64,000 bases of DNA from Escherichia phage SHEFM2K, in the sequence record PQ390715.1. The stretch is one strand, 5' to 3'. Each line of letters opens with the position of its first letter. The first letter of the stretch is position 1. The notes under the pieces are model-generated. The model was given only the letters and a program-made list of their open reading frames with translations, ran no database searches and was not told the origin of the DNA. Shown one piece after another: positions 37,035 through 37,067 of this stretch. The position numbers were made by a program, and so were the translations under genes.

Positions 37035-37064
37035 AAATATCTGTACTTCAACATACAGATATTT
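37035..37064. repeat. perfect 11-bp inverted repeat (AAATATCTGTA / TACAGATATTT) with 8-nt spacer
   Basis: Read directly from the sequence; lies between the protease stop and scaffold start and overlaps the late promoter motif at 37060-37067. Confidence 0.7.
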
Positions 37065-37067
37065 ATA
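37060..37067 (-). promoter_or_regulatory. T4-type late promoter motif TATAAATA (minus strand)
   Basis: Plus-strand TATTTATA about 48 bp upstream of the scaffold gene start (37012); overlaps an 11-bp inverted repeat. Confidence 0.5.

Follow-up and report, generated by a model that had tools for sequence, protein, structure and literature searches.

A conserved candidate RNA stem-loop overlapping the late promoter of the scaffold gene in Rak2-like jumbo phages

Introduction

Phage T4 links the structure of certain messages to the promoter from which they start. The DNA for the 5' strand of a leader hairpin also holds a late promoter at genes e (lysozyme), soc, 49 and I-TevI (PMC3014915). The late RNA escapes this hairpin, which blocks translation of the longer, early read-through RNA (PMC3014915). 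T4 is known to use this origin-dependent principle to keep lysis and homing-endonuclease genes from being translated. Here, we describe a comparable layout in Escherichia phage SHEFM2K (sequence record PQ390715.1), within a stretch of 64,000 nucleotides that was analysed as a whole (the window). The element is an inverted repeat, H1, that overlaps the late promoter of the scaffold gene, just downstream of the prohead protease gene. In our preferred reading, which we advance tentatively and short of calling it probable, an H1 stem-loop formed only by read-through RNA controls the fate of late mRNA, and the promoter of the major capsid gene is built alike.

In T4 late promoters, an 8-bp box occupies the place of a -10 element, roughly one helical turn before +1 (PMC2988020). 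Among phages closer to the one studied here, the genome paper on CBB predicted ATAAATA as a late motif before the structural genes of CBB and GAP32; it noted a gp55-like sigma factor and reported homologues of gp33 and gp45 to be absent from CBB (PMC5259590). Sequence identity places the window with the jumbo coliphages of the PBECO4/121Q type, which are myoviruses of the Rak2-like genus Asteriusvirus: the 2-kb stretch around the repeat matches Escherichia phage PBECO4 at 100% and 121Q at 99.9% identity.

A conserved inverted repeat at the scaffold promoter

Positions 37035-37064 read AAATATCTGTA (37035-37045), CTTCAACA (37046-37053) and TACAGATATTT (37054-37064). This is the perfect 11-bp inverted repeat with an 8-nt loop that a first-pass annotation, made from the letters of the window alone, had placed there. 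The overlap that it described with a late promoter upstream of the scaffold gene is also real: the right-hand arm and the late-promoter-like box TATAAATA have 5 nt in common. The sense-strand RNA is predicted to fold into 12 pairs (the 11 pairs of the repeat and a U·G) at -12.3 kcal/mol (z = -4.2), and RNA of the plus strand is predicted to fold at -10.6 kcal/mol.

As a bare pattern, the repeat is within chance expectation and is not significant. The window holds 2 perfect inverted repeats of at least 11 bp with a loop of 3-12 nt; dinucleotide shuffles give a mean of 0.46 per window, with probabilities of 0.30 for at least one and 0.12 for at least two. What lifts the repeat above chance is the conservation of its arms across relatives. 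The other perfect 11-bp repeat with a short loop, ATGAGCAAAGA-7 nt-TCTTTGCTCAT at 7428-7456, lies inside a coding region (6617-7672, minus strand).

We collected the protease-scaffold spacers of 17 GenBank relatives, 29 IMG/VR contigs, and 19 metagenome contigs. These cover Asteriusvirus, the 7t3/Munch/fENko group, Eneladusvirus, Mimasvirus, Erwinia phages Hallingskeid and Kaldavass, Xanthomonas phage XaC1, and uncultured relatives; the alignment of H1 comprises 17 distinct sequences, and the metagenome contigs contributed further variants. By alignment, H1 is conserved in 17-19 distinct relatives from at least 5 genera of Rak2-like phages. Both arms are retained; divergence is seen in the loop and in the spacer that precedes the box. 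In the comparison with Cronobacter phage GAP32, 21 of the 22 arm positions are identical, whereas identity at 4-fold degenerate sites of the flanking genes is 0.50-0.70.

The arms vary in a manner that preserves pairing. Across the 17 distinct sequences, 94.6% of cells are paired, against at most 65.5% with slid partners, and RNAalifold, run unguided, recovers the same 11 pairs. One pair has changed on both sides: three sequences have U-A for C25-G43, and another three show the U·G intermediate. In four pairs, only one side varies, and the result is always G·U. Read on the sense strand of the gene, H1 contains 19 G·U cells and 3 A·C cells; a further variant, L065, has two more sense-strand wobbles, and a hand count gives approximately 12 independent wobble-compatible transitions against one that is incompatible. 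This pattern points to sense-strand RNA (or single-stranded DNA) rather than to a duplex palindrome. The first-pass annotation had held that loss of the palindrome in relatives, or a lack of compensatory conservation, would speak against its significance; in the relatives the repeat is kept, with one compensatory pair and many wobble-preserving changes.

H1 appears to be a single-copy element. In the window, 50 kb of GAP32, and 12 kb of T4, a covariance model matched the orthologous locus and no further copy, and the next-best match had an E-value of 0.2. This weak, non-orthologous match lies at 14510-14573 (minus strand), where an intragenic TATAAATA is followed 21 nt later by CAGTACTT. A scan of 34000-40000 against Rfam 15, with E-values up to 1, found no family at the H1 site.

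The late promoter and its predicted start site

Sequence comparison gives good support to the view that the TATAAATA before the scaffold gene is a late promoter of the T4 type. Seven of the 8 copies of TATAAATA in the window are followed, 16-56 nt on, by a start codon in the matching orientation, and the eighth is intragenic; by our own estimate, approximately 4% of positions qualify, so that about 0.3 of the 8 would be expected there by chance. The 7-mer ATAAATA provides 19 box-to-gene-start pairings in the window, where it is rarer than expected (23 copies versus 38 ± 7), and these boxes are retained at orthologous genes in GAP32. Within this phage group, only the 7-mer is invariant; the preceding base may be T, C, G, or A. 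The scaffold box itself is present in all relatives, in RaK2 as CATAAATA. By analogy with T4, the factor expected to read TATAAATA boxes is a gp55-like sigma encoded in the window (Table 1). A Pfam search with this protein returned no match, and its GAP32 orthologue, GAP32_238, is annotated "sigma factor for late transcription." Box position, depletion elsewhere, conservation in GAP32, and the gp55-like sigma together bear out the late promoter named by the first-pass annotation.

Placed by the T4 spacing rule, scaffold +1 would fall at approximately 37054, the last base of the 5' arm. RNA initiated at the scaffold promoter would therefore be without the 5' arm, and for this reason only read-through RNA initiated upstream could fold H1. 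The proposal of an RNA hairpin in the scaffold leader thus fails as it was worded, since the predicted promoter transcript starts too late to include the 5' arm. Read-through from the protease gene into the scaffold gene is plausible because a consensus terminator scan detected no intrinsic terminator between the two genes, nor anywhere else inside the head block; the only canonical one follows the capsid gene. The candidate origins of such RNA are late boxes farther upstream (Table 1). One of them, the AATAAATA box before the protease gene, is not kept in GAP32, where the next upstream box precedes the 75-aa gene.

A predicted alternative hairpin in promoter-initiated RNA

The transcript of the scaffold promoter itself is predicted to fold differently. 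In this RNA, the region of the freed 3' arm, AAGUAC.GA, pairs with UC.GUACUU (37034-37027), just 5' of the Shine-Dalgarno (SD) sequence, to form an alternative hairpin, H2. Counted from the start predicted by the T4 rule, H2 would begin at about +7 of the late RNA. Every relative with H1 is also predicted to form H2, in the same position and at -6 to -11 kcal/mol; the central A·A mismatch of H2 is repaired to A-U in three lineages and to U-A in three. In the 7t3/fENko clade, the change G43->A breaks a G-C pair of H2 and is compensated in H1 by C25->U. Judged by the alignment, H1 is more constrained than H2.

We considered whether the conserved CAGTACTT is a mere copy of AGTACT, a hexamer that is over-represented in the window. 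This is disfavoured: four lineages have TGTACTT instead, and the varying base tracks the pairing in H2, so that RNA pairing better explains CAGTACTT. Neither H2 nor the stem at the capsid promoter formed part of the first-pass annotation.

A sister stem at the capsid-gene promoter

The late promoter of the capsid gene, 1.2 kb downstream of the scaffold promoter, is flanked by a perfect 9-bp inverted repeat, with the box in the loop (Table 1). The predicted capsid late start, at approximately 35845 by the same analogy, falls between the arms; only read-through RNA would therefore fold this stem. Among 15 distinct relatives, 91.9% of cells are paired. At one pair, 9 sequences have A-U and 6 have U-A, without a mismatch (CAG/CTG versus CTG/CAG); at another, 13 have C-G and 2 have U-A. 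RaK2 keeps the stem with one G·U, and the loop measures 15-18 nt among relatives. Pairs were counted with an anchored script because MAFFT misaligned the arms in four sequences. The observed pairing is attained by 1 of 2000 column shuffles, a control that ignores phylogeny. In the distant contig L038 (approximately 3280-3330), a box-like sequence of the capsid gene is flanked by a 5-bp GUACU/AGUAC repeat.

The combination of promoter and stem marks the two internal promoters of the head block. Most orthologous pairs of promoters in the window and GAP32 have no such inverted repeat.

The head-gene block

The genes in question lie on the minus strand in the order portal, 75-aa gene, 286-aa virion protein, prohead protease, 371-aa scaffold, and major capsid. 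Protease, portal, scaffold, and capsid are read in the same direction as one block, which has nested late promoters and one terminator. The gap between the protease and scaffold genes is 66 nt long, from the protease stop at 37079 to the scaffold ATG at 37012, and the inverted repeat is inside it. Coordinates are collected in Table 1.

Table 1. Features of the head-gene block, its late promoters and predicted RNA structures, and the putative late sigma gene (window coordinates).
Feature	Position	Strand	Remarks
Portal gene	38974-40713	minus	Pfam Portal_T4
Upstream late box	38965-38971	minus	Conserved in GAP32; candidate read-through origin
AATAAATA box	37720-37727	minus	17 nt upstream of protease ATG; candidate read-through origin
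Prohead protease gene (gp21-like)	37079-37702	minus	Pfam Peptidase_S77, E 1e-20; proposed source of read-through RNA
T4-type late-promoter box TATAAATA, scaffold gene	37060-37067	minus	Exact match; 5 nt common to right-hand arm
H1 5' arm, RNA sense AAAUAUCUGUA	37054-37064	minus	Overlaps last 5 nt of promoter box and the stretch to the predicted start
Predicted scaffold late transcript start	37053-37055	minus	T4 spacing rule
H1 loop UGUUGAAG	37046-37053	minus	Sequence and length (5-9 nt) differ among relatives
H1 3' arm UACAGAUAUUU	37035-37045	minus	Doubles as 5' strand of alternative hairpin H2
Alternative hairpin H2, AAGUAC.GA...UC.GUACUU	37027-37048	minus	Predicted fold of RNA from scaffold promoter
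Shine-Dalgarno AAGGAG, scaffold gene	37020-37025	minus	9 nt 3' of H1; outside stem
Scaffold gene, 371 aa	35897-37012	minus	PHROG 10922 (unknown function); "scaffolding protein" in 121Q, 7t3, and A4 records
Capsid-stem 5' arm UUUUUCAGU	35861-35869	minus	First arm of second conserved stem
TATAAATA box, major capsid gene	35851-35858	minus	In 17-nt loop of second stem
Capsid-stem 3' arm ACUGAAAAA	35835-35843	minus	Begins at about +3 of predicted capsid late transcript
Major capsid protein gene	34630-35805	minus	Pfam Gp23
Canonical intrinsic terminator after capsid gene	34567-34586	minus	Terminator scan; shared 3' end of nested head transcripts
gp55-like late sigma gene	48629-49468	minus	PHROG 12791, E 3e-154; phrog_234 "late sigma transcription factor," E 8e-18

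Two further observations concern the spacers and leaders of this block. The spacer before the gene for the 286-aa virion protein (38584-38672, minus strand) contains an 8-bp inverted repeat, AAAAUCGC...GCGAUUUU, with a loop of approximately 23 nt, followed by AGTACT; it is possibly another intercistronic stem of the head block. At 36965-37030 (minus strand, 40 nt of coding sequence included), the SD region of the scaffold gene is predicted to pair with codons 11-14 or thereabouts (GAAUCAUCUCUUUC, encoding the conserved ESSLS). This pairing is predicted in both transcript classes and in most relatives, and its conservation may be due to coding constraint.

Proposed role

In our proposal, H1 would act as a conserved sense-strand RNA stem-loop of approximately -12 kcal/mol in the intercistronic region between protease and scaffold, its 5' arm formed by the 3' half of the late box and the few bases down to the start site. 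Polymerase starting at the scaffold promoter (approximately 37054) would yield RNA without that arm, and the freed 3' arm would pair with CAGUACUU, immediately before the ribosome-binding site, to give H2. RNA from the protease promoter or from earlier head-gene promoters would carry both arms and form H1. The two classes of scaffold mRNA would thus receive different 5'-proximal structures. The capsid promoter would be arranged alike: the loop of the conserved 9-bp stem contains its box.

We suggest that H1 influences what becomes of the polycistronic late mRNA, either by impeding exonuclease or RNase E or by marking the boundary between cistrons for processing. A processing site, as proposed in the first-pass annotation, is possible. 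The stem-loop would protect or delimit mRNA segments during decay, in a message whose cistrons are needed at very different levels, and H2 would supply the promoter-initiated RNA with a 5'-proximal hairpin of its own. This step is extrapolated from bacterial mRNA decay in general. Scaffold and capsid proteins are required in hundreds to thousands of copies per head, and protease and portal in far fewer. An effect on mRNA fate is likely because neither stem contains the SD or the AUG; a milder effect of H1 on translation is possible. We infer both the formation of the structure in vivo and its effect.

A more speculative reading of the RNA draws on phage P22, whose scaffolding protein is known from genetics to be under autogenous control: H1/H2 could be an RNA operator through which the scaffolding protein controls its own synthesis.

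Several observations weigh against the proposal. A literature search found no transcript mapping for Asteriusvirus or Rak2-like phages, and the start site rests on the analogy with T4. H1 shows little covariation: it has a single compensatory pair, and the column shuffle is not significant (87/500), which is explained by the low variation. The excess of G·U could in part reflect strand-biased mutation. In RaK2, a deletion took the loop, the 3' arm, and the next element, and the 5' arm is still conserved; part of the constraint on this arm must thus relate to the promoter or to initiation rather than to pairing. H1 is missing in RaK2, in L038, and in the metagenome contig L061, and is therefore dispensable. 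Partition functions for 12-19 relatives show no consistent difference in the accessibility of the scaffold SD between read-through and late RNA. Finally, hairpins that span the start are not enriched at the 19 ATAAATA boxes (mean difference in folding free energy, ddG, -4.9 versus -3.7 ± 3.1 at random sites).

The last result, with only some of the boxes qualifying, leads us to reject a general rule whereby late promoters of these phages sit in start-spanning hairpins. As to L061 (JACCDR011401328.1, approximately 1108-1195), its scaffold leader has a GC-rich hairpin, GCACGGGA-GCCA-UCCCGUGC, in place of H1/H2, and this hairpin lies entirely inside the leader.

Alternative explanations

The first alternative is a translational gate of the T4 gene e type, in which the stems nucleate a longer fold that hides the ribosome-binding site in read-through RNA; synthesis of the scaffold and capsid proteins would then depend solely on RNAs from the two genes' own late promoters. 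The placement of a promoter inside or between the arms is the layout of T4 e, soc, 49, and I-TevI (PMC3014915). In the minimum-energy folds of both read-through leaders of the window, weak outer helices reach the first bases of AAGGAG, and the probability that the capsid SD is unpaired is lower in read-through RNA in 12 of 12 relatives (0.18-0.52 versus 0.45-0.61). However, the conserved stems themselves leave out the SD and AUG, and by our own reading of the alignment GAP32-type sequences do not share the outer helix of the scaffold leader. The accessibility of the scaffold SD, as noted, does not differ consistently, and the capsid effect is modest, of the size expected from folding a longer RNA. 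In addition, no early-versus-late discrimination is obvious because all of the upstream promoters are late boxes themselves. We regard such a gate as unlikely.

A second alternative is that H2 alone matters, by stabilising or positioning the late scaffold mRNA as a stem-loop close to its 5' end, and that the complementarity in H1 is incidental. The prediction of H2 wherever H1 occurs is in keeping with this, as are the repair of its A·A mismatch in two ways across six lineages and the substitution, in L061, of a GC-rich hairpin wholly inside the leader. Other late leaders also carry hairpins that are conserved in structure and not in sequence. The comparison of the two stems nevertheless favours H1: paired cells amount to 94.6% for H1 and 82.5% for H2, and in most relatives H1 is the more stable, at -9 to -13 versus -6 to -7 kcal/mol. 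The covariation score of H2 falls below that of its shuffles, and H1 positions outside H2 also keep their pairing through wobbles (column 47). The G43->A change of the 7t3/fENko clade, which costs H2 a pair and is made good in H1, points the same way. On balance, the H2-only account is improbable, slightly more so than the gate.

An element that acts as DNA would be either a site for a dimeric regulator at the late promoter or a cruciform that opens or blocks the promoter. The repeat does overlap the box, the box of the capsid gene sits between inverted repeats, and the A-T to T-A swap in the capsid stem preserves a DNA palindrome as well as an RNA stem. Basal late transcription in T4 depends on supercoiling (PMC2988020), and CBB reportedly has no homologues of gp33 and gp45 (PMC5259590). 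Against this stands the distance between the arms, which varies (5-9 nt in H1, 15-18 nt in the capsid stem) in a manner unlike the fixed footprint of a dimer. Arm sequences, and the position of the arms relative to the box, differ between the two promoters; most boxes are without such a repeat, and the element is single-copy. Changes confined to one arm survive almost only where one strand can then pair as G·U. Loops of 8-17 nt would also make the extrusion of a cruciform costly. The protein operator suggested in the first-pass annotation is thus disfavoured by the variable spacing, by the differing geometry at the two promoters, and by a wobble pattern in which one-sided changes pair only as sense-strand G·U. 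Overall, we give an element that acts as DNA little credence.

A related reading, which we consider very unlikely, is that the two stems activate late promoters at the DNA level: supercoil-driven extrusion or strand-specific folding would present TATAAATA in single-stranded form. This is possible at the capsid gene because the box lies in the loop, and it would concern phages that have a gp55-like sigma and are reported to be without the gp33/gp45 clamp-coactivator pair. If true, it would amount to a structured-DNA promoter within the class of T4 late promoters.

Smaller still is the chance that the repeat has no function and arose at random in an AT-rich spacer, to be kept only by descent. 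Such an origin would accord with the expected number of such repeats per window, with the non-significant shuffle of H1, and with the lack of H1 in RaK2. It would leave unexplained why arms are approximately 95% identical where 4-fold sites are at 50-70% and where the loop and upstream spacer diverge, why substitutions are biased toward wobbles, and why a second, independently covarying stem occurs at the neighbouring promoter.

Slimmest of all is the prospect of a terminator, whether a weak intrinsic one that ends protease transcripts or one for antisense (plus-strand) transcription: the plus-strand hairpin is followed by AUAUUUUUAAAA, but the sense stem has 1-2 G-C among its 11-12 pairs and a tail, UCAGUACUU, with no U-tract, the scan that detects the canonical site after the capsid gene is silent at H1, the plus-strand view turns 19 wobble cells into A·C mismatches, and there is no plus-strand gene nearby.

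Other late leaders and sequence composition

Structures near late boxes were seen elsewhere in the window. At 25795-25831 (minus strand), TATAAATA directly follows the upstream stop codon, and 2 nt farther on there is a 7-bp GC-rich hairpin, GGGGAAC-ACUAU-GUUCCCC, which the predicted start would truncate (ddG -10.6); neither box nor hairpin is present at the GAP32 orthologue. The strongest start-spanning structure among the boxes (ddG -13 to -14) is an imperfect palindrome of approximately 40 nt at 8700-8760, with ATAAATA on both strands (8719 plus; 8747-8753 minus). Two further late leaders, 38910-38971 (minus) and 23138-23190 (plus), have a hairpin a few nucleotides past the box, at a position conserved in GAP32. 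One of these differs in sequence, GAGGGU...ACCCUC in the window and UCGUUCA...UGAACGA in GAP32; the second retains GCAGG...CCUGC in GAP32. These cases suggest that 5'-proximal leader stem-loops recur in the late mRNAs of this phage group.

The hexamer AGTACT occurs 109 times in 64 kb, approximately 5 times the mean of hexamers of the same composition and the highest count among them. Its sites (for example 37028-37033, 44878-44883, and 56581-56597) fall in all three codon phases (56/24/13). The excess extends to GAP32 (L048, 160-210 kb: 105 in 50 kb) and to RaK2 loci, and is absent in T4 (3 in 12 kb) and in L038. It is carried by the GTAC core, and a maximal-order Markov model gives an observed-to-expected ratio of only 1.2. 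A count of 16 "intergenic" AGTACT sites is inflated by about 7 because the plus strand of 60100-64000 is probably coding. That stretch has no listed open reading frame and no tRNA was found in it; by synteny with GAP32_230, a 10-kb gene adjoining the baseplate wedge gene, it is probably the start of a giant gene that leaves the window.

Certain palindromes are avoided. GCGC does not occur in the window, where approximately 55 copies would be expected, nor in 50 kb of GAP32; CCATGG and CAGCTG are absent from the window as well, with approximately 9 expected of each. This looks like restriction-site avoidance common to several genera.

Significance and comparison with known systems

A structure that depends on the origin of the transcript would be a simple way to treat long and short mRNAs differently. 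As a non-coding element of 30 nt, H1 offers a defined target for studying the fate of late mRNA. Should its effect be nil, the value of this work would be limited to better annotation of promoters and leaders.

As a stem-loop at a gene end, H1 is like a Rho-independent terminator; it is unlike one in its AT-rich stem, its lack of a sense U-tract, and its negative terminator scan. PeSL-like promoter/stem-loop cassettes of T4-type phages exist in many similar copies per genome, unlike this element, which is single-copy by covariance model. The hairpin of the ompA 5' untranslated region and intercistronic hairpins that protect upstream segments are stem-loops that stabilise mRNA. H1 resembles them as a short stable hairpin in the untranslated spacer of a polycistronic message, near the 5' end of the downstream leader and without a U-tract. 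It differs in that its 5' arm is partly promoter and in that promoter-initiated RNA is predicted to form an alternative hairpin.

The promoters themselves are like the T4 late promoters read by gp55 (PMC2988020): an 8-bp TATAAATA stands before structural genes, without a -35 element. Unlike in T4, only ATAAATA is invariant, with a variable first base, and CBB reportedly does without gp33/gp45. The two lineages are related through homologues of gp20, gp21, gp23, and gp55. At the T4 gene 21-22 junction, TATAAATA lies over the stop codon of gene 21, and there is no inverted repeat at the gene 22 promoter.

The closest likeness is to T4 e, soc, 49, and I-TevI. There as here, TATAAATA is inside or between the arms, the predicted promoter transcripts are without the 5' strand, and longer transcripts can fold. 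In the T4 devices, the 3' strand holds the SD and/or the AUG; here, the stems end 9 nt (scaffold) and approximately 25 nt (capsid) short of it, the SD and AUG are not sequestered, and no consistent masking is predicted. The genes here serve head assembly, and their upstream promoters are themselves late. The element thus resembles the promoter-inside-hairpin devices of T4 and departs from them in their defining feature, the sequestration of SD or AUG. In the searchable papers, we found no description of a late promoter that overlaps a conserved stem in these phages. Found at the two head genes with the highest expression, in a jumbo-phage clade that has received little study, such a layout without masking of the ribosome site would extend the T4 principle.

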